This document shows positions 1 through 54,278 of a stretch of DNA of 64,000 nt, piece by piece. This DNA is from Acidimicrobiia bacterium (GTDB lineage: Bacteria; Actinomycetota; Acidimicrobiia; Spongiisociales; UBA11373): positions 1,079,628 through 1,143,627 of the forward strand of contig CP129495.1 of the NCBI GenBank assembly GCA_030584185.1, given 5' to 3'. A program made the position numbers and the translations under genes. The stretch's first letter is position 1. Every line of letters begins with the position of its first letter. The notes under the pieces were generated by a model. The model had not been told where the DNA came from, did not search any database, and saw only the letters and a list, made by a program, of their open reading frames with translations.

Positions 1-124
1 TGCCGCCCGTCGACGAAGCCGCCGCCGGGCGCCTCGCCGAGACTGCTGAACGGATCCGAGCGGCGGCGGGCTGAACCACTCGGAAGTTCGCCCGGCTACA
101 TTTCCTGCCAGTAGAGGGAGGTCG

Positions 125-685
125 ATGCCCCGAGTGGAGCACGCCGATGGTTCAGGTCAAGCCGGTGTGGAGCCGATCGCGAGGGCGATTCTGGCGGCCA
201 ACCAGCGCGAGTTCCTCAGGGCGGCCCGCGGCCAACGGTTCGCCTTCGCCACGATGAAGTGGCTGTTCCTGGTCGTGTTCCTGATCTCGCTGGGGGCGAT
301 GATCGCCGCCGTCCGCCTCGCCTCCAACCCTCCTGCAGCCGGGTACGACTGGGCGTACGCCGGCACCGTGGCAGCCGTCGCCGCCATGGCGGTGATCCTC
401 TTTGCCCTCGTGCTCTACATGCGCCCCATGGCCACGCTTGAGCGGAACTCGGTCGTGCAGTCGTTCCTAACGGTCGTGGTCAACTCGTACTGGACGCGCC
501 TGCTGTACACGGCGGACGCCGCCGACGTCGACGCCCACCTCGAAGGGGCCACCGCCTACACCGTGGGGCACCTCGGGGCGCTCCTCGACCGGCAGATCCT
601 GGGGGCATCGCGCTTCATGGACCTGGTGAAGAAGGCACAGGACGACGCCGACCTGGATCCCGGGGCGTACACCTCGCCGCTGTGA
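125..685 (+). CDS. hypothetical membrane protein (two hydrophobic segments)
   Basis: 186-aa ORF preceded by AGGGAGG RBS 5 nt upstream of ATG; TM-like segments WLFLVVFLISLGAMIAAV and VAAVAAMAVILFALVLYM; no recognisable catalytic motif. Confidence 0.5.
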   Translation: MPRVEHADGSGQAGVEPIARAILAANQREFLRAARGQRFAFATMKWLFLVVFLISLGAMIAAVRLASNPPAAGYDWAYAGTVAAVAAMAVILFALVLYMRPMATLERNSVVQSFLTVVVNSYWTRLLYTADAADVDAHLEGATAYTVGHLGALLDRQILGASRFMDLVKKAQDDADLDPGAYTSPL

Positions 686-7555: not shown

Positions 7556-8461
7556 ATGGCCCTGACACTCTCGCTGGTCGTGGCGGCATGCGGCGACGAG
7601 ACCGAAACCTCCGACGATCGCCCGTTGGTGGTCGCCACCACGACGATCCTGGGCGATCTGGCACGCCAGGTGGTCGGCGAATCGGCGCGAGTGGAGGTCC
7701 TGATGCCGATCGATGCCGACCCTCACGACTTTCAGCCCTCGTCGGGCCAGGTGGCCCTGCTCGCCGACGCCGAGCTGGTGGTGGCCAACGGCCTCGGCCT
7801 CGAGGAGGGACTCGAAGACGCCATCGAGTCCACCGCCGGAGATGGCGTGACCGTCCTCTGGCTGGCCGCGGCCCTGAATCCGATCCCGTTCGCCGATCAC
7901 GGCGAGGAAGCCGAGAACGGCAGCGATCACGGTGACCTGGATCCCCATGTATGGATGGATCCACTCCGAATGGCCGAAGGCGCTCGCCTGCTGGCCGCAG
8001 CCCTCGAAGAAGCCGCTCCCGGCGAGGACTGGACGACACCGGCCGAGGCGTATGCGCAAGAACTGCTCGATGCCGACCGACAGATCACGGAGATCCTGGC
8101 GGTGGTCCCCGACGAGAGACGGCTGCTGGTCACCAACCACGACTCACTCGGCTACTTCGCAGCCCGCTACGGGTTCGAGATCCTGGGAACGGTGATCCCT
8201 GGCGGCTCGACCACCGGCGAGCCCTCCTCACGGGATCTGGCCGCCCTGGCCGCCCTCATCACCGAGGCCGGAGTGCCGGCGGTCTTCTCCGAGACCACCG
8301 CACCCCAGAACGTGGTCGATGCGATCGTCGCCGAGGTGGGCACGGAGGTCGCGGTGGTCGACCTGTACTCCGGTTCCCTGGGGCCGGCGGGCACCGAAGC
8401 CGACACGCTCATCGGAATGCTCGTGGAGAACGCCCGCCGGATCGCCGGGGCCCTGTCATGA
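7532..8461 (+). CDS. znuA: metal (zinc) ABC transporter substrate-binding lipoprotein
   Basis: ZnuA/TroA-like SBP with His/Asp/Glu-rich loop (HGEEAENGSDHGDLDPH); lipobox LVVAAC. Start ambiguous: ATG 7499/7508 would overlap the Zur box, TTG 7532 gives a 21-aa signal peptide, ATG 7556 also possible. Confidence 0.75.
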   Translation: MGSRSAVVMALTLSLVVAACGDETETSDDRPLVVATTTILGDLARQVVGESARVEVLMPIDADPHDFQPSSGQVALLADAELVVANGLGLEEGLEDAIESTAGDGVTVLWLAAALNPIPFADHGEEAENGSDHGDLDPHVWMDPLRMAEGARLLAAALEEAAPGEDWTTPAEAYAQELLDADRQITEILAVVPDERRLLVTNHDSLGYFAARYGFEILGTVIPGGSTTGEPSSRDLAALAALITEAGVPAVFSETTAPQNVVDAIVAEVGTEVAVVDLYSGSLGPAGTEADTLIGMLVENARRIAGALS

Positions 8462-8486
8462 TCCCGCCGACACCCGGGAGGGGCCC

Positions 8487-9323
8487 GTGGACTGGCTGAC
8501 CGAACCGTTCTCCCACGCCTTCCAGCAACGCGCCCTGCTCGGCGCCGCCCTGGCGGCCGTGGCCACCTCCACGGTGGGGATCTGGGTGGTGGTGCGCGGG
8601 ATGAGCTTCCTCGCAGACGCCCTGGTCCACGGCGTCGTCCCGGGAATCGCCCTGGCTGTCCTCTTCGGGTTCGACCCAGCCCTGGGAGCCGCCGCTGCCG
8701 CCCTGGTCATGATCGGTGGGATCCGCCTGGTGCACCGCCAGACTCCCTTCTCCGAGGACACCGGTATCGGGCTGCTGTTCGTGGGAATGCTCGCCCTCGG
8801 CGTCATCCTCGTCTCTCGAACCGCTTCGTACAGCGTCGCCCTCAACTCGATCTTGTTCGGCAACGCCCTTGGGGTCACCGTTGGCGACATCGTCTGGCTG
8901 GCTGTGATCGCCGCCGTGGCGCTCGCCGTGTCGCTGCTGTTCTATCGGCGCTTCCTGGTCCTTGCGTTCAACGAGCAGAAAGCGGCTCTGCTCGGGCTCC
9001 GCCCCGGCCTGTCGCACGCCGTGCTGCTGGGGCTCACCACCCTGGCGATCGTCGGCGCCTTCCGCACCGTGGGTACCCTGCTCGTGTTCGGGCTGCTGGT
9101 GGGCCCTCCCGCCACTGCCGCCCTTCTGGTACGCAGGGTCCCGACGATGATGGCGGTGTCGATGGCGATCGGCGTCGCCTCGGCCGCACTCGGGCTGTTC
9201 ATCTCATATCACGCCGACACTTCCGGCTCGGCCACGATGGCACTGGTCCCGGTGGTCGGCTTCTTCCTCGTCCTCACCGTCAAGGGCGTGCTCAGAGGGG
9301 TGACTCGAAGCCCGGTTCGATGA
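8487..9323 (+). CDS. znuB: metal (zinc) ABC transporter permease
   Basis: GTG start 8487 in frame of ORF 8319..9323; 8-TM ZnuB/TroCD-like permease (LADALVHGVVPGIALA motif). Confidence 0.8.
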   Translation: MDWLTEPFSHAFQQRALLGAALAAVATSTVGIWVVVRGMSFLADALVHGVVPGIALAVLFGFDPALGAAAAALVMIGGIRLVHRQTPFSEDTGIGLLFVGMLALGVILVSRTASYSVALNSILFGNALGVTVGDIVWLAVIAAVALAVSLLFYRRFLVLAFNEQKAALLGLRPGLSHAVLLGLTTLAIVGAFRTVGTLLVFGLLVGPPATAALLVRRVPTMMAVSMAIGVASAALGLFISYHADTSGSATMALVPVVGFFLVLTVKGVLRGVTRSPVR

Positions 9324-11848: not shown

Positions 11849-13111
11849 ATGGCGAAGTGGAGCGACATCGACGCCTCCGGCCTGCATCCGGAGAGCCTGA
11901 TGATGACCTACGGGTACCGACCCGAGTGGTCGGAGGGGGCGGCGGCCCCTCCCATCTTCCAGAACTCGACCTTCGTGTTCCCCTCGGCCGCCGTGGGAGA
12001 ACGCTGCTTCGCCGTGGCCTACGGCCTCGCCGCCCCTCTCCCCGACGAGCACCCGGACCTCATCTACTCGCGAATCAACAACCCGGACCTCGAGATCGCC
12101 GAGGATCGCCTGGCGCTGTGGGATCGCGCCGAGACCGCAGCCCTGTTCGTGAGCGGCATGGCGGCGATCACCACCACGCTATGGGCACACCTGCGACCCG
12201 GCGACGTGATCGCCGCCTCCTCCCCCATCTACGGCGGCACCCACCACTTCATCGAGACCGTGCTGCCCCAGTTCGGGATCGAGTCGGTGCGCTTCGACCC
12301 CGACGCCAAGGCCGGCGACGTGATCGCAATGGTCGAGGCCACGGGCAGGCCGCTGGGCATGGTGTATGCCGAGACCCCAGCCAACCCCACCAACGCCCTG
12401 ATCGACCTGGGGATGTGCGCCGAGGTCGCCGCCCGATTCTCGACGCCGGCACGGAGGGTGCCGGTGGCGGTGGACAACACCTTCCTGGGGCCTGTCTTCC
12501 AACGCCCCCTGGAGCACGGAGCCGACATCGTGCTCTACTCGGCCACCAAGTATCTGGGTGGCCACGGCGACCTGATCGCCGGCGCCGCCGTCGGGGCGAA
12601 GGCGCTCCTCGATCCGATCCGTGTGATGCGCACCTTCACCGGCAACATGCTCACGCCGTTCGTCTCCTGGCTCCTGATGCGCAGCCTGGCCACGCTGCAT
12701 CTGCGCATGGAACGGCAGGCCGACAACGCCCAGAAGGTGGCCGACTTCCTCAGGGGGCATGCGAAGGTGGAGTCGGTCAACTACCTGGGTCACCTCGAGT
12801 CCGGCGACCCCGGCCACGACCTGTACCGAAAGCAGTGCCTCGGGCCCGGGGGGATGATCTCCTTCGAGGTCGCCGGCGGGAAGCCGGAGGCGTACCGCTT
12901 CCTCGATGGCCTTCGCCTCTTCAAGCTGGCGGTGAGCCTGGGCTCGGTGGACTCCCTCGCCGAGCATCCGGCCACCATGACCCACTGCGAGGCGGGCAAG
13001 GAGGCCAACGACGCCAAGGGGATCACCGAGTCGCTGATCCGGATGTCGATCGGGGTGGAGCATCCCGACGACCTCGTGGCCGACGTGAAGCAGGCCCTCG
13101 AAGCGATCTGA
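11849..13111 (+). CDS. PLP-dependent Cys/Met-metabolism enzyme (methionine gamma-lyase / cystathionine gamma-synthase family)
   Basis: 420 aa; PLP-lysine motif YSATKYLGGHGD, NPTN motif (ETPANPTNALIDL), trans-sulfuration family architecture. Confidence 0.85.
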   Translation: MAKWSDIDASGLHPESLMMTYGYRPEWSEGAAAPPIFQNSTFVFPSAAVGERCFAVAYGLAAPLPDEHPDLIYSRINNPDLEIAEDRLALWDRAETAALFVSGMAAITTTLWAHLRPGDVIAASSPIYGGTHHFIETVLPQFGIESVRFDPDAKAGDVIAMVEATGRPLGMVYAETPANPTNALIDLGMCAEVAARFSTPARRVPVAVDNTFLGPVFQRPLEHGADIVLYSATKYLGGHGDLIAGAAVGAKALLDPIRVMRTFTGNMLTPFVSWLLMRSLATLHLRMERQADNAQKVADFLRGHAKVESVNYLGHLESGDPGHDLYRKQCLGPGGMISFEVAGGKPEAYRFLDGLRLFKLAVSLGSVDSLAEHPATMTHCEAGKEANDAKGITESLIRMSIGVEHPDDLVADVKQALEAI

Positions 13112-21432: not shown

Positions 21433-21684
21433 ATGACAACCCCGGTGCCTACCCGGTTCACCGAGGCGGAACTCGCCCTCATCGACGAGCTCGTGACCAA
21501 GGGCATAGGAGACAGTCGATCGGCCGTGATCCGCCGAGGCGTTCACCACCTCGCCGACGCCGTTCACCGAGCCCAGATCGGTGCCGCCATCGCAGCGTCG
21601 TATCGGGAACGGCCCCAGGGCCCCGAGGACGACGCCCTTGCCATGTCCAACGCCATCGCGATGACCGAGGCGGAACCGTGGTAG
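21433..21684 (+). CDS. type II antitoxin, ribbon-helix-helix (CopG/MazE-like)
   Basis: 83 aa; MTTPVPTRFTEAELALIDELVTKGIGDSRSAVIRRGVHHL RHH fold signature; immediately upstream of MazF-like toxin. Confidence 0.65.
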   Translation: MTTPVPTRFTEAELALIDELVTKGIGDSRSAVIRRGVHHLADAVHRAQIGAAIAASYRERPQGPEDDALAMSNAIAMTEAEPW

Positions 21685-21989
21685 CCCAGACCGAGATCTG
21701 GTTGATGGAGACGCCCAACCAGAAGCGCCGACCGGTGCTCGTCATCTCGCGCGACGAGGTCATCCCGGTCCTTGCCAACATCATCGTGGCCCCCATCACG
21801 AGCACGATCCGCAACATCCCCACCTGTATCCCGGTCGGACCCGATGAAGGCATCGACCACGACAGCGTGGCCACATTCGACAACCTCGCCGCCGTGCCCA
21901 AATCGGTGCTCACCAGACGCCTCGGCAAGCTCGGCGCCGACGGACGCCGGCTCATCTGCGAGGCCCTCGCCGCAGCTGCCAACTGTTGA
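21678..21989 (+). CDS. type II toxin, MazF/PemK-family endoribonuclease
   Basis: GTG start overlapping antitoxin stop by 7 nt; VVAQTEIWLMETPNQKRRPVLVISRDEV ... IVAPITS matches MazF/PemK core (GEIWxVDL...RPVLVxS...VAPxTS). Confidence 0.75.
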   Translation: MVAQTEIWLMETPNQKRRPVLVISRDEVIPVLANIIVAPITSTIRNIPTCIPVGPDEGIDHDSVATFDNLAAVPKSVLTRRLGKLGADGRRLICEALAAAANC

Positions 21990-22268
21990 CCGATCTCGTC
22001 GATCCCCTCCACAGCGGGGACGCATCCGGAGAGACAAGTGCCATTTCGGCGCGCCCCGGCATGCGGACGGTCGGCGCCCCTTCGAGACCCCTGACTGTGA
22101 GGATGACACTCGTAGCTCGGTGCGTGTGCTGGGCTGCTGTTGGTGGCGGCGATACACCCGCCCACCCCCCTTCCCACCGCGTCTGCCTCCCGGGCACGCC
22201 CAGGGAGTCGCTGATACTCTTACGGTGTCCGCCTGCGGGGCAGGGCGGCGTGGTCTGCGGAGGGACTG

Positions 22269-24626
22269 ATGGCACGCCTGCCGCGCGCACCGACGCTCTT
22301 GGTGGTGGTGCTCCTCCTCGCCTCCGTCGTTCCCACAGCCCTCGCCGAGGTGGGCTGGAGCCGTGCCGCCCGGTTCGGTGGCGACAACCAGACGGTGGCC
22401 TGGGCCTCGGCGATGGACCGGATGGGCAACGTCTACGCAACCGGCGTCCTCAACGGGACCGCCGACTTCGACCCTGGCGGCGGCACCTTCAACCTGACCA
22501 GCGCCGGCGCCCAGGATGTGTTCGTCGCCAAGCTCACCCCCGATGGTGATCTGCTCTGGGCGCACGCCATCGGCGGAACCAGCTCCGACGAGGGGATGGG
22601 TATCGCCACCGACCCGGCGGGGAACGTGTACGTCACCGGATACTTCATGGGCACCGTCGACTTCGACCCCGGCCCGGGCACGTCGAACCTCACCTCGGCA
22701 GGCGACCAGGACATGTTCGTCCTCAAGCTGTCCACCGACGGCGACCTGCTCTGGGCAAAGCGGATAGGCGGAGCGGGCGCCGACACCGGCTCCGCGATCG
22801 CGGTCGATCGCGGCGGCAACGTCCTCACCACGGGCTACTACACGGGCACCGTCGACTTCGACCCGGGCGCCGGTGAGGCCAACCTCCCCGGCGTGGGCGA
22901 CACCGACGCCTTCGTGTCCAAGCTCGATGCCGACGGGACCCACGTCTGGGCTCGACTCCTCGGCGGCACCGGGCCGGACGAGGGCATGGCGGTCGCCACC
23001 GACGCCGCAGGCAGCGTCTACTCGGCGGGCCGTTTCAGCGGCACCGTCGATTTCGACCCGAGCGGTGCAGTGAGCAATCGCACCTCGAACGGAGGGATCG
23101 ACGGCTACGCCTGGAGGCTCGACCCGGACGGGTACCTTGAGTGGGCCGCCCCGCTCGGCGGCGCCGGAGACGACACGGCGACGGCGATCTCGGTCGACCG
23201 TTACGACTTCGCCGTCATCGGCGGGAGCTTCGCGGGTACGGCCGACCTCGATCCTCATCCCACCGAGACCTTGAACCTGGTCTCCGCCGGCGGCCTCGAC
23301 GCCTTCCTCGTTCGGCTCGATCAGAACGGCGAGCTCTCCTGGGCCAAGCGCGCCGGTGGCGTCAACGACGACGAGGTCACCGGTGTTCACCTGGGCGGCG
23401 CCATCGAATCGGCGACCGCAACCGGCACCTTCTCGGGAACGGTCGACTTCGACCCCGGCCCCGACACCGCCTCGTCGGCCTCGGCCAATCCCGCCGGGTT
23501 CGTGTGGAAGCTGAGCGCTCTGGGCGACTACGAGGACCACGGGGCGATGTCGGGCACCGGAACCGTCCGATCCGAGGGCCTCGGCTGGGACGGCTCCGGC
23601 GGCTTCGCCGCCTCCGGCCGGCTCTTGGGGACCGCCGACTTCGACCCGGGACCGGGCGTGGCCGAACTCACGGCGAGCGGACCGCTCGATGCCTATGTCA
23701 CCACGATCGGAAAGCCGACACTGCTGACCCACATGGGCAGCAACCGCTACCACACAGCCTCCCTGGTGGGCTCCTGGGCATTCCCACGCGGCCCCAAGAC
23801 GGCTTTCGTCGCCGTCGGCACCAACTTCCCCGATGCCCTCGCCGGAGCGGCGGTGGCCGGCCTCTTGGATGCCCCCCTCTTCCTGGTCCGTTCCGACTCT
23901 ATCCCGTCGGAGACCCTCACCGGGATCACCAACATGGACCCGGACTCGATCGTCGTGCTCGGAGGGACCACCGCAGTCTCCCAGGTCGTGTTCGACCAAC
24001 TCACCGCCATCCAGACCAACACCGTGCGCGTCTTCGGGAGCAACCGCTACGCCACCGCGGTGGCGATCTCCCAGCTCGGGTTCCCGGCGACCGCCAGGAC
24101 CGTGGTGATCGCCACCGGGCTCAACTTTCCCGACGCCCTCGCCGCCGCGCCCGCTGCCGTCGTATACGGCGGTCCGGTGCTGCTCACCGATCCGAACACC
24201 GTCCCGCAGGTGGTGAGGGACGAGATCACCCGCCTGGCACCGGAACGGATTGTGGTCGTCGGCGGAACGGCGGTGATCTCCGACGATGTCGTGAACGCCT
24301 TGAAGGAGATACAGCCCAACACGGTCCGCATCGCCGGCGCCAACCGCTACGACACCGCCATCGGCCTCGCCCAGGACGCCTTCCCCGACGGTGCCAGCCG
24401 GGTGACGGTCGCCACCGGCCTCGCCTTCCCCGACGCCCTGGCGGGGGCGGCGGCGGCGGGGGCCTGGCGGGGGCCGATCCTCCTCGTCCCCGGGACCAGC
24501 CTCCCCGCTGCGGTGTCGACCGAACTCCTCCGTCTCGACCCGTTCCACGTCGACCTGCTCGGAGGGGACGCCGCGATATCGCCTCTGGTCCGCTACCAGA
24601 TCGGTGCCCTGCTGTTCGGCTGGTGA
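22269..24626 (+). CDS. secreted surface protein: SBBP beta-propeller repeats plus three cell-wall-binding repeat-2 (CWB2) domains
   Basis: Sec signal MARLPRAPTLLVVVLLLASVVPTALA; ~8 repeats of G-TVDFDPG-x-NLTSAG-DAFV-KL-DG-LWA (SBBP); C-terminal three repeats of GSNRY-TA-AIS...FP....V..ATG.NFPDALA (CW_binding_2). Confidence 0.75.
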   Translation: MARLPRAPTLLVVVLLLASVVPTALAEVGWSRAARFGGDNQTVAWASAMDRMGNVYATGVLNGTADFDPGGGTFNLTSAGAQDVFVAKLTPDGDLLWAHAIGGTSSDEGMGIATDPAGNVYVTGYFMGTVDFDPGPGTSNLTSAGDQDMFVLKLSTDGDLLWAKRIGGAGADTGSAIAVDRGGNVLTTGYYTGTVDFDPGAGEANLPGVGDTDAFVSKLDADGTHVWARLLGGTGPDEGMAVATDAAGSVYSAGRFSGTVDFDPSGAVSNRTSNGGIDGYAWRLDPDGYLEWAAPLGGAGDDTATAISVDRYDFAVIGGSFAGTADLDPHPTETLNLVSAGGLDAFLVRLDQNGELSWAKRAGGVNDDEVTGVHLGGAIESATATGTFSGTVDFDPGPDTASSASANPAGFVWKLSALGDYEDHGAMSGTGTVRSEGLGWDGSGGFAASGRLLGTADFDPGPGVAELTASGPLDAYVTTIGKPTLLTHMGSNRYHTASLVGSWAFPRGPKTAFVAVGTNFPDALAGAAVAGLLDAPLFLVRSDSIPSETLTGITNMDPDSIVVLGGTTAVSQVVFDQLTAIQTNTVRVFGSNRYATAVAISQLGFPATARTVVIATGLNFPDALAAAPAAVVYGGPVLLTDPNTVPQVVRDEITRLAPERIVVVGGTAVISDDVVNALKEIQPNTVRIAGANRYDTAIGLAQDAFPDGASRVTVATGLAFPDALAGAAAAGAWRGPILLVPGTSLPAAVSTELLRLDPFHVDLLGGDAAISPLVRYQIGALLFGW

Positions 24627-24627
24627 C

Positions 24628-25773
24628 TCAGAGCGCCCGGCACCAGGCGTCGTAGTCGACGAGCGGCGGCGGGCGGGCCTCGTCCCCGCAGGCGGGGCAG
24701 TCCCGAAGCCGCTCGAACCGCAGCGTGGTCGACTCGCCGGAGAGGGCGTCGTGGATGAGCAGCCTTCCCACCAGGGCGTCGCCGGCACCGACCAGGATCT
24801 TGATGGCCTCCACCACCTGCAGCGAGCCGATCGCCCCGGTGAGCGCCCCCAGCACCCCGCCCTCGGCGCAGTCGGCCACAGTCCCCGGATCGGGTGGCAG
24901 CGGATACAGGCAGCGGTAGCACGGCCCCCGATAGGGGTCGAAGACGGTCACCTGGCCCTCCCACCGGTACACCGAGGCGTGCACCACCGGCACCCGCAGG
25001 TGCAAGGAGGCATCGTTCACCAGGTAACGGGTCGGGAAGTTGTCGGTCCCATCGATCACCACGTCGTAGTCCGACATCACATCCAGGGCATTGCCCGCCA
25101 TGAGGGGTTCCTCCCTCGGGAGCACCTCCACGCCGGGATTGAGGCGGCACAGCGCCGCCGCCGCCGAGGCCACCTTGGGCTGTCCGATGCGGTCGGTGTC
25201 GTGGATCACCTGTCGCTGCAGGTTGGAAAGCTCCACCCGGTCGGAGTCGACGATCCCGACCGTGCCCACGCCGGCGGCCGCCAGGTACAGGGCGGCCGGT
25301 GACCCGAGCCCACCGGCCCCGATCACCAGGACCCGGGCGGCGGCTAGTCGCTCCTGGCCCGCCCCCCCGATCCCGGGCAAAGCGACGTTGCGGGCGTAGC
25401 GGGCCGGCCCGGTCCCTTCGGGAAGCATCACCTCCCTTCCCTCGATCCTCCACAGGACGATCCCCCCACTCATGGAGGCGACCCTCCCGTACCCCATCTC
25501 CCGCAGTTCGAGCCCGGCGAGCAGCGACCGCCTGCCGGTGGCACAGAACAAGACGATCTCCGCATCCCGATCGGGCGCGGCATCCGCCACCTCGTCGGCG
25601 AGCCGCTCCCACGGGACCGCCAGCGACCCGGGGATGGTCCCGGCGACGATCTCGTGGTCGTGCCGGACGTCGATCAGCACCAATCCCCCTCCGAGACGCT
25701 CCTCCACGTCACCCGGGGTGACCTCGGGGACGCGGAGCCGCGCCTCCTCCATGCGATCGACGAAGGCGGTCAC
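24628..25773 (-). CDS. sulfur-carrier-protein adenylyltransferase/sulfurtransferase (MoeZ/MoeB-like) with N-terminal rhodanese domain
   Basis: GTG start with GGAGG 8 nt upstream; rhodanese active site LFCATGRRS at N-term, then ThiF/MoeB E1 fold (VLVIGAGGLGSPAALYLAAAGVGTVGIVD, ELSNLQRQ) and Zn motifs CYRC...CPAC; ORF-track N-terminal 190 aa rejected. Confidence 0.8.
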   Translation of the reverse strand: MTAFVDRMEEARLRVPEVTPGDVEERLGGGLVLIDVRHDHEIVAGTIPGSLAVPWERLADEVADAAPDRDAEIVLFCATGRRSLLAGLELREMGYGRVASMSGGIVLWRIEGREVMLPEGTGPARYARNVALPGIGGAGQERLAAARVLVIGAGGLGSPAALYLAAAGVGTVGIVDSDRVELSNLQRQVIHDTDRIGQPKVASAAAALCRLNPGVEVLPREEPLMAGNALDVMSDYDVVIDGTDNFPTRYLVNDASLHLRVPVVHASVYRWEGQVTVFDPYRGPCYRCLYPLPPDPGTVADCAEGGVLGALTGAIGSLQVVEAIKILVGAGDALVGRLLIHDALSGESTTLRFERLRDCPACGDEARPPPLVDYDAWCRAL

Positions 25774-26168
25774 TCCCCTGCCTCCAGGGGTTCCTCGACC
25801 GGCACTCCTTCGACGATCCTCCACGCCCGCATCTCCGGATGGCGGCCTTCGAGGCCGACGATGACATCGATCCATTCGCCTCCGGGAGCACCTGCCATGT
25901 CCGTCGCCGAAGGCAACGCCGGGCCGGCGGGATGCGAGTGGAAGGCGCCCCGGATCGTCCAGCCGTTGGCGTCCGCCATGCGCACCACGCGATGGTGCTC
26001 TGCCGGGTCGATGGTGAACTCGACGGTGGACTGATCGGCGTTGGGCACGCAGTACGCCTTGCGCAGCACACCCTCGGTGTCGAACGCCAGCAGGCCACAG
26101 GCTTCCATCGGCCGCGCCGCCAAGGCTCGCTCCAAGACTTCGACACGGACTAGATCGGTGATGATCAC
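25770..26168 (-). CDS. JAB/MPN-domain metalloprotease (Mec/CysO-hydrolase-like)
   Basis: 132 aa; JAMM motif E..x.. HSHPAGPALPSATD; GTGA overlap with downstream moeZ-like gene. Confidence 0.8.
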   Translation of the reverse strand: MIITDLVRVEVLERALAARPMEACGLLAFDTEGVLRKAYCVPNADQSTVEFTIDPAEHHRVVRMADANGWTIRGAFHSHPAGPALPSATDMAGAPGGEWIDVIVGLEGRHPEMRAWRIVEGVPVEEPLEAGE

Positions 26169-26211: not shown

Positions 26212-26475
26212 GTGACCGGCCACCTGGCTACTCTTTGCCCCGTGAACGAGCAGATGACCCGAATGTTCGAGGCGGCCTCGCGGCGCACCGTGGCCGTGCG
26301 CACCGCCGAGGGCAAGCCCCTCGCCCGCCTCAAGCTCCTCCATGCCGCGGCGGTCGCCGCCGCCGGGATCGTGATGGCACCCCGCCTCACGGCGACGGCG
26401 GTACTGGGAGCAATGTTCAAGGGGCTGCGGCTCGAGGTCGAGGAGCAGGTGGACCAGCAGCCCGCTGCCGCCTGA
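26212..26475 (+). CDS. small hypothetical protein (possible membrane-associated)
   Basis: 87-aa ORF exactly filling gap between mec start and MFS stop; Ala-rich hydrophobic stretch LLHAAAVAAAGIVMAPRLTATAVLGAMF; start uncertain (ATG 26254 alternative). Confidence 0.3.
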   Translation: MTGHLATLCPVNEQMTRMFEAASRRTVAVRTAEGKPLARLKLLHAAAVAAAGIVMAPRLTATAVLGAMFKGLRLEVEEQVDQQPAAA

Positions 26476-26478
26476 TCA

Positions 26479-27786
26479 TCACGGACGGGGCGGCCCGTCC
26501 CTCTCCACCAGCAGTCCGGCGACGAACACGGTCTGGGCCGCCAGGGCGGCGGCGCCCGCCACCGCCAAGCCGACCCGGGCATCGATGGTCAGCGTCACCG
26601 GGATGATGGCACCCACCACCCAGGCGAGCTGGAACAGTGTCTCCGAGCGGGTGAACGCCGCTCCCCGGCCATCGGGTGCCACCCGACTCTGCAGCAGCCC
26701 GTCGAAGGCGAACTTGGCCGTGCCCCAGGCGAGACCGGCAGCCGCCGCCAGCGCCGCCGCCGCCGCCAGGCTGAAGAACTGACCGGCCACGAATGCGGCG
26801 GCGGCCTCGATCGCCAGGGCGGCCACCACCATCGGCTCCTCTCGCAGCAGCCTCTCCAACGCCGGGCTGATCAGGGAGGCCAGGCCGTACCCGAGCCCGG
26901 CGGCACCGATGAGGGCGGCGAAATCCACCCCGCCCGCCTCCTGGCCCCGGAACTCGAAAGCCAGCAGCAGGAGGAGGAAGCCGTTGATGAGCCGCACCCC
27001 GGCGGTGGCGAGACGGGAGAGCCGCAGCGAACGGGTCGCCCCCGAGGTCATCGGTTGCATCACGTCGTCGGGAGCGAGAAAGGTCCGGTCGCGACGCGCC
27101 GCATCACGCGGATCGGGGAGACCCAGGCTGGTGAAAGCGGAGAACCCGAAGAACACCGCCGCCAGCGCCAGCGCCAGAGACGGCTCGATCGAGACCAGTG
27201 CCGCCCCGATCGGCAGCACCACGGCACCGGCGTAGATCCCGATGCGGGCCAGAAAGGCGTTGGCGCCCACGAGGGCGACCGGCTGCGGCAGCGCCACCGG
27301 AAGCATGCTGGAGCGGGCGATCCCGTAGAGGCGTGACAGCACCAGCATCCCGAAGGCGAGCGGGTACAGCCAGAGGGTGGTGAGGCCCATCATCATCACC
27401 ACGGCCAGGATGGTTCTCAGGCTGGATGCGATGGTCAGAGCCGCCCGGTAGACGCCGCCGAGACGGGAGAACAGCCCACCCATGATCGGGGCGATCACCG
27501 TGAACGGCACCAGCGTGAGGCCCAGGTAGAGGGCCACGTTTCCCCGCGCCTCGCTGGTGGGAACGCTGAAGAACAGGGTTCCGGCGAGGGCCACCGCCAC
27601 CAGGGTGTCGCCGGCGACGTTGGCCGCCCACGACACGGCCAGCTGCTTGAAGGCGGGCCCGTGGCGGCTGAACATGGCGTCCACCCGCTTGGCGGCGGCA
27701 CGCGCCGTCCTCCTCGTCATGCCGGCAGACGGCCGGTCGTTCATGCCGGGACGACCGCGAGATGTCATGGAGACGAACTTAGCCAA
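26479..27786 (-). CDS. MFS-family transporter
   Basis: 435 aa, ~12 predicted TM helices, MFS-like loop motifs; start among several in-frame Met (MTSRGRPGMNDRPSAGMTRR). Confidence 0.75.
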   Translation of the reverse strand: MAKFVSMTSRGRPGMNDRPSAGMTRRTARAAAKRVDAMFSRHGPAFKQLAVSWAANVAGDTLVAVALAGTLFFSVPTSEARGNVALYLGLTLVPFTVIAPIMGGLFSRLGGVYRAALTIASSLRTILAVVMMMGLTTLWLYPLAFGMLVLSRLYGIARSSMLPVALPQPVALVGANAFLARIGIYAGAVVLPIGAALVSIEPSLALALAAVFFGFSAFTSLGLPDPRDAARRDRTFLAPDDVMQPMTSGATRSLRLSRLATAGVRLINGFLLLLLAFEFRGQEAGGVDFAALIGAAGLGYGLASLISPALERLLREEPMVVAALAIEAAAAFVAGQFFSLAAAAALAAAAGLAWGTAKFAFDGLLQSRVAPDGRGAAFTRSETLFQLAWVVGAIIPVTLTIDARVGLAVAGAAALAAQTVFVAGLLVERDGPPRP

Positions 27787-39358: not shown

Positions 39359-40735
39359 ATGAAGATCCGTCTGCGCCGTCCCCGCGACCTCGCAATCGCA
39401 CTGCGCGAGCTGGCCCGTCGCCGCCCCGATGAGGCCGCCGACTACCTCGATGCCCACGAGGAGGAGTGGGCTTCGCTCGCCGAGGCCGACCCCCAGAACG
39501 CCGCCGACATCCTCGAGGCGATCCCGGAGGAGGACGCCGCCGACCTGATCTCCGAGCTGACACCGGGTGAGGCGGCCGAGGTGCTCGAGGAGATGCAGGA
39601 CGCCGCCGCCGCCGACATCCTCGAAGAGCTGACCGCCGCCGAGGCCGCCGCCGCCGTCACCGAGCTCCCGCCCGAGGAGGCTGCCGACATCGTCGGTCTG
39701 ATGCCCGAGGACTCGCGTCAGGCCATCTTCGAGGAGATGGATGAGGAACGGGTCGAGGAGATCCTCGACCTGCTCCGGCACCCGCCGGACTCGGCGGGCG
39801 GACTGATGACCCCGGGTCCGGCGACGCTGCCATCGGGGATCACCGCCGGCGAGGCCATCGAGGCTTTGCGGCGCCTCCACGAGGGTCTCGAGGAGATGAA
39901 CTACGTCTACGTGACCGAACTGGATGGCCGGCTCACCGGTGTGGTCTCGTTTCGCGACCTGGTCTTCGCCCGGCCACTCACCTCCCTTGCCGAGGTCATG
40001 GTCCCCAACCCGGTCGCCGTGGGGCCCGAGACCGACCGAGAGGAGGTCGCCGAGCTGATCCAGCGATACGGGCTGTTGGCGCTGCCGGTGGTCGACGAGG
40101 CCGGGGTGCTGCTGGGCATCGTCACCATCGACGACGTGATCGAGGCGGTGCAGCGTGAAGCATCCGAGGACATCGCGGCGATGGTCGGCGCCGGCGTCGA
40201 GGAGACCATCTACACCACCTGGTACCAATCGGTGCTTCACCGGCTCCCCTGGACGGTGTTCAACCTGGCGAGCGCCTTCTTCGTGGCCCTGGTGGTGAGC
40301 CGCTTCGAGCCGGTGATCGGGCGGATCGCCGTACTCGCCGCCTACATGCCGGTGGTGGCATCGGTGGGTGGCAACAGCGGGGCCCAGAGCCAGGCGGTTG
40401 TGATCCGCTCGATGGCGGTCGAGGAGATCCCTTCGCACATGGTCCGCCGCCTGTTGGGCCGGTCGCTCCTGATCGGGTTCGTGAACGGCCTGGCCGTGGC
40501 CGCGATGTCGGGGTTGGTGGCTGCCTTCTTCACCGGGCGGGCAGACATCGGCGTGGTCATCGGGCTGGCCGCCCTGGCCAACCTGGTGATCGCCAACCTG
40601 GCGGGGAGCGGAATCCCCCTGCTTCTGCATCGGCTAGGGCAGGACCCGGCGATGGCATCGAACATCTTCATGACGATGATCACCGACATGGTCGGGTTCG
40701 GCGGGTTCCTGGCGATCGCCACGCTGCTGCTCTGA
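39359..40735 (+). CDS. mgtE: magnesium transporter MgtE
   Basis: N-domain acidic helices, tandem CBS domains, 5-TM C-terminus with PVVASVGGNSGAQS and MITDMVGF motifs; start at MKIRLRRP. Confidence 0.85.
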   Translation: MKIRLRRPRDLAIALRELARRRPDEAADYLDAHEEEWASLAEADPQNAADILEAIPEEDAADLISELTPGEAAEVLEEMQDAAAADILEELTAAEAAAAVTELPPEEAADIVGLMPEDSRQAIFEEMDEERVEEILDLLRHPPDSAGGLMTPGPATLPSGITAGEAIEALRRLHEGLEEMNYVYVTELDGRLTGVVSFRDLVFARPLTSLAEVMVPNPVAVGPETDREEVAELIQRYGLLALPVVDEAGVLLGIVTIDDVIEAVQREASEDIAAMVGAGVEETIYTTWYQSVLHRLPWTVFNLASAFFVALVVSRFEPVIGRIAVLAAYMPVVASVGGNSGAQSQAVVIRSMAVEEIPSHMVRRLLGRSLLIGFVNGLAVAAMSGLVAAFFTGRADIGVVIGLAALANLVIANLAGSGIPLLLHRLGQDPAMASNIFMTMITDMVGFGGFLAIATLLL

Positions 40736-51419: not shown

Positions 51420-52049
51420 CTAACCTCCCGCCGGAGGCGATGGCCTGCGGCCGCCTCTGCCGGCGGTGAGGTCGGTGACATCGTCCTCGGTGTCGAGATC
51501 CCCGGGAGCCCTGTGATCGACGCGGACCTCGTGGACCCAGTCGGTGTGTGCCTTCAGCAACCCGGCGGCGCCGACATCCCCCTCCAGGGCCATCAGGCGA
51601 TCCCACAGCCGGCGACGGAAGAGCACCGGGTTGCCCCGCTCCCACCGGTACACCGGGACCAACGCCGGGCGATCGCTCTCCTCGGCGGCGGCGAGCAGGG
51701 CATGCGGAACATCGGTCGGGATCTCGGGCTGGTCACCGAGCACGACGAACGCCTTCTCCACGTGAGGGTGACGCGTCAGGAAGTCGAGACCGACCCGCAG
51801 GGATGAGGCCATGCCCTCCTCCCACTCCTCGTTGAGCAGGACGACGGCGTCACCGAACTCGACGGCGTCGAGGATCTCGTCGGCGTGCGCACCAAGCACC
51901 ACCACGACCAGATCCACCGGCCAGGACCGCACCGACGCCACCACCTTGGCCAGCAGCGGCCCGTCGCCATAGGGCACGAGCTGCTTGGGGCGCCCCAATC
52001 GGCGGCTGGCGCCGGCCGCCAGGATCAGGGCGGCGGTCGTGGGATTCAT
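51420..52049 (-). CDS. MobA-like NTP-transferase domain protein (molybdenum cofactor nucleotidyltransferase family)
   Basis: start MNPTTAALILAAGASRRLGRPKQLVPYGDGPLL (LAAGxSxRxG motif of MobA/MocA). Confidence 0.65.
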   Translation of the reverse strand: MNPTTAALILAAGASRRLGRPKQLVPYGDGPLLAKVVASVRSWPVDLVVVVLGAHADEILDAVEFGDAVVLLNEEWEEGMASSLRVGLDFLTRHPHVEKAFVVLGDQPEIPTDVPHALLAAAEESDRPALVPVYRWERGNPVLFRRRLWDRLMALEGDVGAAGLLKAHTDWVHEVRVDHRAPGDLDTEDDVTDLTAGRGGRRPSPPAGG

Positions 52050-52160
52050 TCGTCGCACAGTAGCCCCGCGGTGCGCGTCCACCAGGAAGTGCCGATTGCG
52101 GTCGCCGCCGGGCTCCCGGCGTGGCAATCTTGGGGGCTGCATGTCACCTTGGAGGTTCAG

Positions 52161-53276
52161 TTGATCGTCGGTGTCCCCCGCGAGATCAAGACCGAGGAGT
52201 ACCGCGTCGCCATGACGCCCGTCGGAGCACGCGAGCTGGTCGGTCACGGACATCGCGTCCTTATCGAGTCAGGTGCGGGCACCGGATCGTCGATCACCGA
52301 CGACGACTTTGTCGCCGTGGGGGCCGAGGTGGTGCCCACCGCGACAGAAGTCTTCGCTGCAGCGGACATGATCGTCAAGGTCAAGGAGCCCCAGCCCTCC
52401 GAGATCGCCATGCTCGAGCCGCGCCACGTCCTGTTCACCTACCTCCATCTGGCGGCGTATCCGGCCGAGGCCAGGGGCCTGCTCGACTCCGGGGCCACCG
52501 CCATCGCCTACGAGACGGTTCAGCTGCCCAACGGTGCCCTGCCGCTGCTCGCCCCGATGAGCGAGATAGCCGGGCGGATGGCGGTGCAGGCGGGAGCGCA
52601 CTTCCTGGAGCGACCACGGGGGGGTCGCGGCGTTCTGCTCGGTGGCGTCCCCGGAGTGGCTCCCGGTCGGGTCACCGTCCTCGGCGCCGGCATGGCGGGC
52701 CGCAACGCGGCGATGATCGCTGCCGGGATGGGTGCCGAGGTGGTGGTGCTCGACGTCAACCTGATGCCGTTGCGTCACCTCGACGAACTGCGCTGGGGAA
52801 GCGTGTTCACCGTGAAGTCTTCGATCCTCGCCATCGAGACATACGTTTCGACCTCGGAGCTGGTCGTGGGTGCAGTTCTGATTCCGGGTGCTCGCGCCCC
52901 GATCGTGGTCAGCGAGGAGATGGTGAAGGGGATGAAGCCGGGGAGCGTGCTGGTCGACATCTCGATCGACCAGGGGGGATGCATCGCCACCGCTCGGGAG
53001 ACCACGCACAGCGATCCGGTTTACGAGCAGCACGGAGTGATCCACTACGCCGTGGGAAACATTCCGGGGGCCGTGCCCAACACCGCCACCTACGCCCTGA
53101 CCAATGCCACGCTCCCCTATGTGGTGGCGCTGGCCGACGGGGTGGCTCCGGCGATGCGTCGCCACCCGGAGCTCCTGGGGGGTGTCAACGTCGCAGCCGG
53201 CCAGGTGACCAATCAGGCAGTCGCCGCCTCACTCGGGATGGAGACGGTCGACGCCTCAGCCGCCCTCGGGCTCTAG
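52161..53276 (+). CDS. ald: alanine dehydrogenase
   Basis: TTG start with GGAGG RBS; MIVGVPREIKTEEYRVAMTP, NAD-binding VTVLGAGMAGRNAA, AlaDH/PNT family. Confidence 0.9.
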   Translation: MIVGVPREIKTEEYRVAMTPVGARELVGHGHRVLIESGAGTGSSITDDDFVAVGAEVVPTATEVFAAADMIVKVKEPQPSEIAMLEPRHVLFTYLHLAAYPAEARGLLDSGATAIAYETVQLPNGALPLLAPMSEIAGRMAVQAGAHFLERPRGGRGVLLGGVPGVAPGRVTVLGAGMAGRNAAMIAAGMGAEVVVLDVNLMPLRHLDELRWGSVFTVKSSILAIETYVSTSELVVGAVLIPGARAPIVVSEEMVKGMKPGSVLVDISIDQGGCIATARETTHSDPVYEQHGVIHYAVGNIPGAVPNTATYALTNATLPYVVALADGVAPAMRRHPELLGGVNVAAGQVTNQAVAASLGMETVDASAALGL

Positions 53277-53728
53277 CCCAACACCTCCACCAGACGGTCC
53301 TGCAGATGGCCGAGGTAGAGGAGCAGAGCCATCTCGGCGTCCTCCGCCGGCTCGGACTCGTCCTCCCAGCCGTCGTCCTCCACGCCGAGCGCATGGGCCA
53401 GGAGGAGGCGGGCCTCGCCTATCACCCGCAGCCAAGCCTCGGCCTCGTCGGCGTCGATTCGCTCCCGACCCAGGCCGGAGAGGAACACGGAGCGGTCCTG
53501 CTGCCGCGCCTCCTCCAGGGAGGCGCCGACCAGGTCGCGGTACCTGCGGTCGGCCGCTTCATCGTCGGGGTGAGCGACGTATGTGAGCCTGCCCCCGGCG
53601 TCGCCGCCACCATCCAGCATCTCGGGGAGCGCGGCCAGGGCCGTGCGCTCCAGGTCACCGAGACGAACCACGATCTCTCGCTCGTCCCTGGCGAACGGGC
53701 CCCTCACGTCCGCTCCAACGTCGCCCAC
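53273..53728 (-). CDS. DUF2017 domain protein (ClpS-associated)
   Basis: 151-aa acidic protein immediately downstream of clpS on the same strand, conserved actinobacterial synteny. Confidence 0.55.
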
Positions 53729-53991
53729 AGCCCGTGATGGTGGAGGCGATGGCAGTCGAGCTCGGCCTTCTCAAGGGGGCCGCTCGACACCACCGCCCTT
53801 CCCTCGTGGTGGACCTGGAGCATGAGGCGGGTCGCCTCCTCCAGGGAGTGGCCGAACAGCTTGCGGAACACCCAGACCACGTAGGACATCAGGTTCACCG
53901 GATCGTTCCACACCACCACCTGCCAGGAGCGGTGGCGAGCGGTCGACTCGTCGACTTCCGGGGTGTCTACGCGTTCGGGGGCGACGGTCAT
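53704..53991 (-). CDS. clpS: ATP-dependent Clp protease adaptor protein ClpS
   Basis: 96 aa from MTVAPERVD; [46 protein letters not shown] matches ClpS core. Confidence 0.85.
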
Positions 53992-54278
53992 CGTCGCTGA
54001 TCTGCCGGGCGCTCCGAGAGCCTGGAGGCCAGCCGCTGGGCGTTGAGCCAGTCCTCGAAGTCGAGGCGGGCGACCCGCCACTCACGGCCCATCTTCACCG
54101 CCGGCAGCTCGCCGCTGCGCAGCACCCTGGTCACCACGAAGGTGGATACGTCCATGTACTCGCAGATGTCGGCCACGGACAGCCACTCCTTGCCGACGTC
54201 GACCACGATTCGTTCCACACGCGCAGGGTACCGCCGCCTGGATGAGCGTGGAAGTGGGCCGGCTTCGGGGTGGAACAT
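53988..54278 (-). CDS. helix-turn-helix (excisionase/MerR-like) DNA-binding protein
   Basis: [47 protein letters not shown]; ATGA overlap with clpS; start chosen at MFHPEAG. Confidence 0.5.

Follow-up and report, generated by a model that had tools for sequence, protein, structure and literature searches.

A predicted MoeB-class sulfur-carrier-activating enzyme with an N-terminal rhodanese domain and its adjoining JAB protease gene in an Acidimicrobiia bacterium

The window, a 64-kb stretch of Acidimicrobiia DNA, carries on its minus strand a gene for a JAB-family protease followed by a gene for an E1 enzyme. The E1 gene (24628..25773, minus strand) starts with GTG and encodes 381 residues; its limits were taken from the open reading frame and the sequence, and public assemblies have the same gene call. 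Its predicted product is a sulfur-carrier-protein adenylyltransferase/sulfurtransferase of the NCBIfam NF006444 family, with a rhodanese domain at the N terminus and a ThiF/MoeB domain at the C terminus. We observed that the rhodanese domain spans residues 19-109 (25447..25719, minus strand; Pfam PF00581, E=1.4e-13) and the ThiF/MoeB adenylation domain residues 126-360 (24694..25398, minus strand; PF00899, E=2.5e-79). This bears out the rhodanese-before-E1 order of the original prediction, and the strings on which it relied (LFCATGRRS, VLVIGAGGLGSPAALYLAAAGVGT, CYRC and CPAC) were all found in the protein.

The residues expected of a sulfur-transferring E1 are present. The rhodanese active-site loop reads C77-A-T-G-R-R-S (Cys77 codon, 25543-25545), and C77, G80, R82 and S83 were invariant in an alignment of 15 family members. 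The adenylation domain contains the GAGGLGS nucleotide loop, R187, D241 and D244, together with a crossover-loop cysteine, Cys302 (codon 24868-24870). Two zinc motifs, CYRC (C285-x2-C288; 24910-24921) and CPAC (C359-x2-C362; 24688-24699), are both present. All of these residues were invariant across the family alignment, including the zinc-motif cysteines. The protein closes with the tail RPPPLVDYDAWCRAL (24631..24687, minus strand), which holds a further cysteine, Cys378, that was invariant in the alignments; it ends three residues past the tail motif VDYDAWC. The window E1 is substituted at two nearly invariant family positions, E38 and H129. The nearest solved structures to its adenylation domain were E. 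coli MoeB (1jw9) and Uba4 (6yub).

The domain order is not an artefact of a frameshift or mis-assembly. We examined 23 contigs carrying the identical 381-residue protein, which the assembly collection records in 77 blocks. Full-length homologues also exist: at least 120 proteins, mostly from Acidimicrobiia metagenome-assembled genomes, were 54-62% identical to the window E1 over 91-100% of its length (nearly all over 97-100%).

Although the inverted order is real, it is not peculiar to this locus, since it defines a family already catalogued as a curated NCBIfam equivalog (NF006444/PRK08762, "MoeB"). The window E1 matched this profile with 463.3 bits (cut-off 449), residues 6-380 aligning with positions 5-385 of 387, and the first ~126 profile positions are the rhodanese part. 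Two relatives matched over their full length and above the cut-off with higher scores (L071, 535 bits; L089, 558 bits), so the window E1 is a divergent, low-scoring member. It shares with the family the same rhodanese cysteine, nucleotide loop, CXXC motifs, crossover cysteine and VDYDxxC tail. A control E1 with a C-terminal rhodanese (L007) aligned with profile positions 127-385 only and stayed below the cut-off (438 bits). We found no biochemical or experimental paper on any rhodanese-first E1 in the searchable literature.

The protein had been described as MoeZ-like, a label that does not hold. MoeZ and MoeZR are told apart from MoeB and MoeBR by the loss of two CXXC motifs, the first replaced by NYRD and the second missing (Voss et al. 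2011, PMC3227635). The window E1 keeps both motifs, as do the MoeB domains of MoeBR, MOCS3 and Uba4, and it reached only 334 bits, over the ThiF part alone, against the cut-off of 647 of the MoeZ model (NCBIfam NF005902). Because of these two results, the sequence places it in the MoeB class and not in the MoeZ class. The family's product name, "molybdopterin-synthase adenylyltransferase MoeB", is an automatic annotation, and the MoaD adenylyltransferase activity that it names is predicted.

Next to MoeBR/MOCS3/Uba4-type enzymes, the difference lies in where the rhodanese sits. The ThiF domains of the C-terminal-rhodanese E1s that we sampled were 51-60% identical to that of the window E1, and in a neighbour-joining tree the rhodanese-first clade nested among them. 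Both groups carry VDYDxxC after the second CXXC motif. In the C-terminal-rhodanese enzymes this motif begins an inter-domain linker that leads to the rhodanese, whereas rhodanese-first E1s stop 3-12 residues past it (3 in the window E1). The window rhodanese instead lies at the N terminus, about 15 residues before the N-terminal RYxR helix of the E1. The expected chemistry would be alike in the two arrangements (PMC3227635).

The origin of the N-terminal rhodanese was assessed by similarity. It scored 40-58 bits against C-terminal rhodanese domains and 82 bits against an unrelated rhodanese (PDB 6mxv). Multi-rhodanese proteins, with scores summed over several domains, dominated a phmmer search; domain by domain, their similarity was about the same as that of the C-terminal rhodaneses. 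As the N-terminal domain is not detectably closer to the C-terminal ones, these comparisons make its acquisition by independent fusion plausible.

The JAB gene (25770..26168, minus strand) also starts with GTG and encodes a 132-residue JAB/JAMM (MPN+) metalloprotease. We observed a Pfam Prok-JAB match from residue 10 (E=2.5e-18; 66.5 bits, cut-off 25) and a complete JAMM motif, read directly from the sequence, made up of E22 and H77-S-H79-x7-S87-x2-D90 (25899-25940). The protein aligns with PDB 2kks and with PfJAMM1 (5lda), the closest to it among solved JABs of known function. As had been claimed, this is a separate gene that overlaps the E1 start: reading the sequence, we found that the TGA ending the JAB gene and the GTG opening the E1 gene share GTGA (25770..25773, minus strand). 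The long upstream extension of the E1 frame proved to be the JAB gene in another frame, as proposed; the E1-frame open reading frame has 571 residues, and its first 190 yielded no further Pfam domain. A GGAGG stands 7 nt upstream of the E1 GTG. This motif and the GTGA overlap suggest that translation of JAB and E1 is coupled within a two-gene operon. A scan for promoters and terminators detected nothing, and Rfam returned no RNA match, riboswitches included, across the whole window.

The pairing of the two genes recurs in relatives. The JAB gene adjoins the E1 gene in most of them, and the two coding regions frequently overlap. It lies directly upstream of E1 in the window and in L003/L065, L004, L005, L006, L067, L069, L075 and L076-L085, and L071 and L072 have it directly downstream. 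No JAB adjoins the E1 in at least four members of the family (L068, L070, L073 and L074), so the protease is not obligatory for the E1.

Pairs of a JAB and an E1-like protein also occur in anti-phage CBASS systems of the Cap2/Cap3 type, and such a role would draw on the matches of the window E1 to PADLOC "E1-E2" (Cap2) models (27-67 bits, among the 25 models listed) and to NCBIfam 6A-MBL_cap2_3 (44 bits). None of these matches extended beyond ~160 residues, all within the shared adenylation core, in profiles of 426-778 positions. The E1 has no E2 domain, the JAB protein had no Cap3 match in PADLOC, and no cyclase or effector gene lies near the pair. The order with flanking housekeeping genes is kept across relatives. 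With NCBIfam and PADLOC matches restricted to the adenylation core, an anti-phage function is effectively refuted, and we assign it a negligible probability.

We then looked in the window for the small protein on which such an E1 would act. A Pfam scan of 150 small window ORFs listed 25 of 29 families, none of them ThiS/MoaD/Urm1, tblastn with carriers and cysteine synthase gave nothing credible in the window, and hmmsearch of its six frames with a CysO/MoaD profile gave no match at E<=1. A GG-ending ThiS-type carrier with a PALP enzyme adjoining the JAB or E1, as in CysO/CysM/Mec sets, was thus not seen in the window. The absence of a carrier gene beside the E1, first noted for the flanking 1 kb, therefore extends to the whole 64 kb. 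Carrier, CysM and MoaE genes were likewise not found in any locus of the clade with JAB before E1, and the annotated contexts of other close relatives held no ThiS/MoaD-type ORF. The suggestion that the carrier is fused to a biosynthetic enzyme found nothing in its favour in the window.

Three features of the window were considered and set aside. An 87-residue ORF on the opposite strand (26212..26475, plus strand) is not a carrier: it matched DUF4342 weakly, lacked a conserved GG end and had an Ala-rich hydrophobic core; its AlphaFold model was poor (pLDDT 56) and not beta-grasp-like, and in both L075 and L069 it accompanies a 417-421-residue membrane protein and not JAB-E1. E. coli MoaD gave a weak tblastn match (39857-40024) that belongs to an MgtE transporter, within its CBS region. 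The ClpS-DUF2017 pair (53273-54081) was considered as the marker of a mec-cysO-cysM cluster, and no such cluster follows it.

CysO-like carrier genes of the ThiS family do adjoin E1s of the same architecture elsewhere (L089, L092, L094, L095 and L103), which fits the expectation that the carrier of the window E1 is encoded at another site in the genome. In L089 and L092, an E1 with an N-terminal rhodanese occurs with a ThiS-family carrier of 90 residues whose C terminus is GG, with a PALP cysteine synthase and with a Prok-JAB protein. In L094 the E1 is accompanied by a carrier and PALP, in L095 by a carrier, and in L103 the carrier precedes the E1. Three residues follow the GG of the carrier in L094 (GG-ALA) and 18 in L103. 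These extended carriers offer a maturation substrate for a protease, and such extensions would explain why one is required. The full operons belong to a different lineage from that of the window. Near-identical carrier proteins indicate that these relatives are probably Chloroflexota/Limnocylindrales, and the ThiF domains of their E1s were ~57% identical to that of the window E1, their N-terminal parts ~43%.

The arrangement in the window has precedents. A JAB with an E1-rhodanese protein, with or without a ubiquitin-like protein (Ubl), was described in 2006, so the carrier-less pairing is already known (Iyer, Burroughs and Aravind 2006, PMC1779556). The window fits their type 4b, the pair without a Ubl, and differs from it only in the side of the rhodanese, which is carboxyl-terminal in that account. 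Type 4b was recorded in cyanobacteria and proteobacteria and not in Actinomycetota, to which the window belongs (PMC1779556). L089 and L092 match type 4c, which adds a Ubl and a cysteine synthase (PMC1779556). In type 4d, mec-cysO-cysM comes after ClpS-DUF2017 (PMC1779556), whereas the ClpS-DUF2017 pair of the window stands without these genes.

The M. tuberculosis set of MoeZR with Mec+, CysO and CysM resembles the window in having a rhodanese-bearing E1 and a stand-alone JAB, and the relatives with operons of E1, CysO-like carrier, PALP and JAB resemble it too. The differences are of class and of linkage. The CXXC motifs are absent from MoeZR, whose rhodanese is C-terminal (PMC3227635), whereas the window E1 has both motifs and an N-terminal rhodanese. 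In Mycobacterium, mec lies with cysO-cysM and the E1 elsewhere; in the window, the JAB gene is the neighbour of the E1 gene, and a carrier and a synthase would be encoded elsewhere. A single E1 acting on carriers encoded at other sites, as MoeZR does, is a likely arrangement for the window E1 as well. The QbsD/QbsE and CxnF/CxnE pairs offer a parallel for the protease, since JAMM proteases have been proposed to cut the residues past the GG of QbsE and CxnE (PMC5925218), and the carriers of L094 and L103 are likewise extended. Those pairs sit in secondary-metabolite clusters; the window has no such cluster.

Taken with these comparisons, we consider it likely that the pair is a coupled operon in which the E1 forms the thiocarboxylate of CysO/MoaD-type carriers whose genes lie elsewhere, and the JAB protein trims or recycles these carriers. 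We infer the E1 chemistry from the conserved residues and from characterised MoeB, MoeBR, MoeZR and Uba4 enzymes. As an enzyme of the MoeB class that activates sulfur-carrier proteins, it would bind ATP in its ThiF domain and adenylate the C-terminal Gly-Gly of a small protein of the ThiS/MoaD/CysO type. A persulfide on rhodanese Cys77 would then attack the acyl-adenylate to give the carrier thiocarboxylate, and crossover-loop Cys302 may assist this attack. The JAB metalloprotease would service the same carrier in one of two ways. It may trim residues past the GG so that the carrier can be adenylated, or it may hydrolyse covalent carrier adducts such as CysO-cysteine and so recycle the carrier; Mec+ hydrolyses CysO-cysteine (PMC3227635). 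By comparison with the full-operon relatives, the carrier would most likely be a CysO/SAMP1-like ThiS-family protein, the partner of a CysM-type cysteine synthase. MoeZR thiocarboxylates CysO and MoaD alike (PMC3227635), and the window E1 may additionally serve MoaD in molybdenum cofactor (Moco) synthesis.

The possibility that the E1 is a housekeeping MoeB acting on MoaD only, beside a JAB protein of general or unrelated role, appears unlikely. It would agree with the product name of the family and with several gene neighbourhoods: within 6-8 kb of the E1 lie MoCF_biosynth, XdhC and COXG in L071 and L072, Oxidored_molyb and XdhC in L068, and Moco subunits of the xanthine dehydrogenase type in L065 and L075, and the window itself has a MobA/MocA-like NTP_transf_3 protein (51423-52253). 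However, the Moco genes of the relatives are separated from the E1 by several genes or lie on a different strand, and the carriers that adjoin E1s are accompanied by a PALP cysteine synthase, not by MoaE. An unrelated JAB is also at odds with a JAB-E1 linkage that occurs in both gene orders, with overlapping frames, across divergent clades. Activity on MoaD as such is compatible with a coupled sulfur-carrier operon, because MoeZR serves both pathways (PMC3227635).

Bacterial protein conjugation, with the E1 activating a ubiquitin-like modifier that becomes joined to target proteins and the JAB protein removing it, much as in archaeal sampylation or Thermus TtuB conjugation, is far less probable. 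The top NCBIfam match of the JAB protein was a haloarchaeal desampylase model (NF041370, 63.1 bits), the E1 scored 302 bits on a SAMP-activating E1 model, the L089 carrier passed the SAMP1 model (66 bits, cut-off 60), and PfJAMM1 is the nearest relative of the JAB protein among solved JABs of known function. Yet both window proteins fell well under the cut-offs (63 against 130 bits for JAB; 302 against 450 for the E1). A rhodanese with an invariant catalytic cysteine indicates sulfur transfer, the relatives' operons contain cysteine synthase, and no E2- or E3-like gene lies near the pair.

A bolder reading, to which we give only a small chance as a whole, holds that the E1 of this lineage lost a MoeBR-type C-terminal rhodanese and gained an unrelated N-terminal one, and that JAB-E1 is a stand-alone, carrier-agnostic module and not a fragment of a CysO operon. 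The N-terminal RYxR helix closes over the ATP site, and the persulfide cysteine would then sit beside it, a relay geometry unseen in Uba4 and MOCS3. Such a module would handle several dispersed carriers, from maturation and thiocarboxylation to recycling, or might even reverse their conjugation to proteins.

Overall, the JAB-E1 locus is most likely an ordinary sulfur-carrier-activating operon whose domain order, family and gene pairing were already catalogued. The rhodanese-first family is common in uncultured Acidimicrobiia and probable Chloroflexota. The NCBI blanket name "MoeB" probably understates its role, given relatives in CysO/CysM/JAB operons, some with carriers that would need C-terminal trimming. 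Rhodanese-first E1s offer a natural comparison for the effect of rhodanese placement on the sulfur relay in Uba4/MOCS3-type enzymes.

The locus spanning 24628-26168 comprises two minus-strand genes in our ORF reading. The sulfur-carrier activating protein (E1) is encoded at 24628-25773 (minus strand, GTG start, 381 aa) and carries a Rhodanese domain at residues 19-109 (Pfam E = 1.4e-13) followed by a ThiF domain at residues 126-360 (Pfam E = 2.5e-79). The JAB gene lies upstream (25770-26168, minus strand, GTG start, 132 aa), and its Prok-JAB product (Pfam E = 2.5e-18) has a complete JAMM motif (E22 ... H77-S-H79-x7-S87-x2-D90). The E1 GTG start overlaps the JAB TGA stop as GTGA, with GGAGG 7 nt upstream of the GTG. 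The domain order and overlap read by the original prediction were thus confirmed. Public gene calls place the JAB start at ATG 26108 (112 aa). In the 132-aa form, however, the Pfam match starts at residue 10, and PDB alignments include the helix preceding the catalytic Glu, so GTG 26168 is the better start. The 571-aa ORF that continues upstream in the E1 frame gained no additional domain in Pfam, so this "extension" is JAB coding sequence translated out of frame, as had been proposed.

We asked whether mis-assembly could account for the domain order. An identical 381-aa protein was present in 77 blocks of a public assembly collection (23 contigs carrying it were read), and at least 120 homologues with 54-62% identity covered 91-100% of E1, nearly all 97-100%. 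Mis-assembly therefore does not explain the arrangement.

E1 scored 463 bits with the NCBIfam equivalog NF006444 (PRK08762; "molybdopterin-synthase adenylyltransferase MoeB"), above the curated cut-off of 449, and the match spanned positions 5-385 of the 387 in the model. Full-length scores of relatives at two comparison loci were 535 bits (L071) and 558 bits (L089). A control with a C-terminal rhodanese (L007) matched positions 127-385 only and fell below the cut-off (438 bits), so the N-terminal rhodanese corresponds to the opening ~126 positions of the model. What looked "inverted" is thus the order by which an already curated family is defined. MAG homologues of E1 likewise bear the NCBI label "MoeB". 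MoeZ/MoeZR proteins are set apart from MoeB/MoeBR by loss of both CXXC motifs (Voss et al. 2011; PMC3227635). E1 keeps both (CYRC and CPAC), and these were invariant in an alignment of 15 family members, as were C77/G80/R82/S83 of the rhodanese loop, the GAGGLGSP nucleotide loop, R187, D241/D244 and C302 of the crossover loop. The NCBIfam MoeZ model was not passed (334 bits; cut-off 647). Judged by its sequence, E1 is of the MoeB class, not MoeZ. The original interpretation was partly right: the lack of an adjacent carrier held, the "MoeZ-like" assignment did not, and the domain order is not peculiar to this locus. Our literature search found no paper describing any rhodanese-first NF006444 member. 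Within this family, which is catalogued but biochemically unstudied, E1 is unremarkable though somewhat divergent.

A neighbour-joining tree built from ThiF domains (no support values) placed the rhodanese-first proteins in one clade, nested among C-terminal-rhodanese E1s. Both groups share "VDYDxxC" after the second CXXC. This motif opens the inter-domain linker in C-terminal-rhodanese E1s; in rhodanese-first E1s the chain ends 3-12 residues past it. The N-terminal rhodanese scored 40-58 bits against C-terminal rhodanese domains versus 82 bits against the unrelated PDB entry 6mxv, and is thus no closer to the former. Loss of the C-terminal rhodanese and an independent N-terminal fusion is plausible but not proven. 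Among other MoeB homologues, those of Rhodobacteraceae (L019, L023, L025, L026, L034, L036, L038 and others) have a hydrophobic N-terminal extension of ~100 aa before ThiF. It resembles 2-3 transmembrane helices, with a conserved "LPxGNxLRxATGGS" stretch, and would make these proteins membrane-anchored.

The JAB gene was directly upstream of E1 in the window and at L003/L065, L004, L005, L006, L067, L069, L075 and L076-L085, and directly downstream at L071 and L072, often with overlapping reading frames. No JAB adjoined E1 at L068, L070, L073 and L074. That the two genes adjoin in either order in divergent clades speaks for a common function. The window locus is of a gene-neighbourhood type already described in 2006: Iyer, Burroughs and Aravind (PMC1779556) reported two-gene JAB and E1-rhodanese neighbourhoods without a ubiquitin-like protein (type 4b), and others with a ubiquitin-like protein and cysteine synthase (type 4c).

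We searched the window for a carrier. In a Pfam scan of its 150 small ORFs, ThiS/MoaD/Urm1 families were absent among the matches listed (25 of 29 families). With approximate query sequences for ThiS and MoaD of E. coli and for CysO of M. tuberculosis, tblastn gave chance-level matches only; one, inside an MgtE CBS domain, was rejected. A profile built on CysO-like carriers had no match at E ≤ 1 in all frames of the window and of every JAB-before-E1 locus of the clade. By all three approaches, no carrier was found in the whole 64 kb, well beyond the flanks of E1. PF02597 was also absent within 6-8 kb of E1 in ten annotated relatives (precomputed Pfam tables). The 87-aa candidate on the opposite strand is a DUF4342 protein that belongs with the neighbouring membrane protein. 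The carrier and cysteine synthase of this lineage must presumably lie outside the window.

The DUF4342 gene (26212-26475, plus strand) is convergent with, and almost abuts, the gene for this 421-435-aa membrane protein (26479-27786, minus strand; no Pfam match). The pair is kept at L065, L067, L069 and L075, and homologues suggest that DUF4342 truly starts at GTG 26242 (~77 aa). The window, L065, L069 and L075 share the order GpsA, PIN-PhoH, 421-aa membrane protein, DUF4342, JAB, E1, GSDH, (CN_hydrolase), Cys/Met PLP enzyme, DAO. Compared with these loci, the window has two insertions. One (21433-24626), between E1 and GSDH, holds a PemK toxin-antitoxin pair (21433-21989), made up of a PemK/MazF toxin and an 83-aa protein, together with a secreted protein of 785 aa that contains SBBP and CWB2 repeats (22269-24626); the other, of about 6 kb, separates GSDH and CN_hydrolase. 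No sulfur-metabolism genes were found among the immediate neighbours of JAB-E1, and Rfam detected no RNA family in the window.

The 420-aa Cys/Met-metabolism PLP enzyme (11849-13111, plus strand) is possibly an O-acetylhomoserine sulfhydrylase. Enzymes of this kind are known to take part in thiocarboxylate-dependent homocysteine synthesis. Its gene is 11.5 kb from E1 in the window and only 1-4 kb away at L065, L069 and L075, always on the opposite strand and after GSDH; this proximity may be shared gene order only. ClpS and DUF2017 genes lie together at 53273-54081 (minus strand). This pair accompanies mec-cysO-cysM in type 4d actinobacterial neighbourhoods (Iyer 2006; PMC1779556), but in the window the next gene is a convergent one for alanine dehydrogenase, with no JAB, carrier or cysteine synthase there.

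By analogy with MoeB, MoeBR, MoeZR and Uba4 (PMC3227635), the ThiF domain would adenylate the terminal glycine of a carrier, and a Cys77 persulfide would turn the adenylate into a thiocarboxylate. The JAB protein would either uncover the GG end, the role suggested in the QbsD/QbsE and CxnF/CxnE systems (PMC5925218), or cleave adducts such as CysO-cysteine to free the carrier (PMC3227635). A parallel role of E1 in molybdenum cofactor synthesis is likely. In several relatives Moco-related genes lie near E1, and a MocA/MobA-like protein is encoded in the window.

Scanning metagenomes with the family's N-terminal 150 residues recovered rhodanese-first E1s that sit within complete operons. Both L089 and L092 have overlapping coding regions for E1, a ThiS-family protein of 90 aa with AMAGG at its C-terminus, a PALP cysteine synthase and Prok-JAB. 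The L089 carrier passed the NCBIfam SAMP1 model, and its near-identical homologues are labelled Chloroflexota or Candidatus Limnocylindrales. Just upstream of the L089 operon, a SufU/IscU-like ORF (73-357, plus strand), recognised by reading the sequence alone, hints that the rhodanese there may be loaded via a cysteine desulfurase. L094 has E1, a carrier (8409-8690) and PALP, L095 has E1 and a carrier, and at L103 the carrier (1650-1973) precedes E1. The ThiS-family carrier of L094 ends GG-ALA, and that of L103 continues 18 residues past GG, the extension overlapping the E1 gene start. What this analysis usefully adds is the comparative tie of rhodanese-first E1s to CysO/CysM operons and to C-terminally extended carriers.
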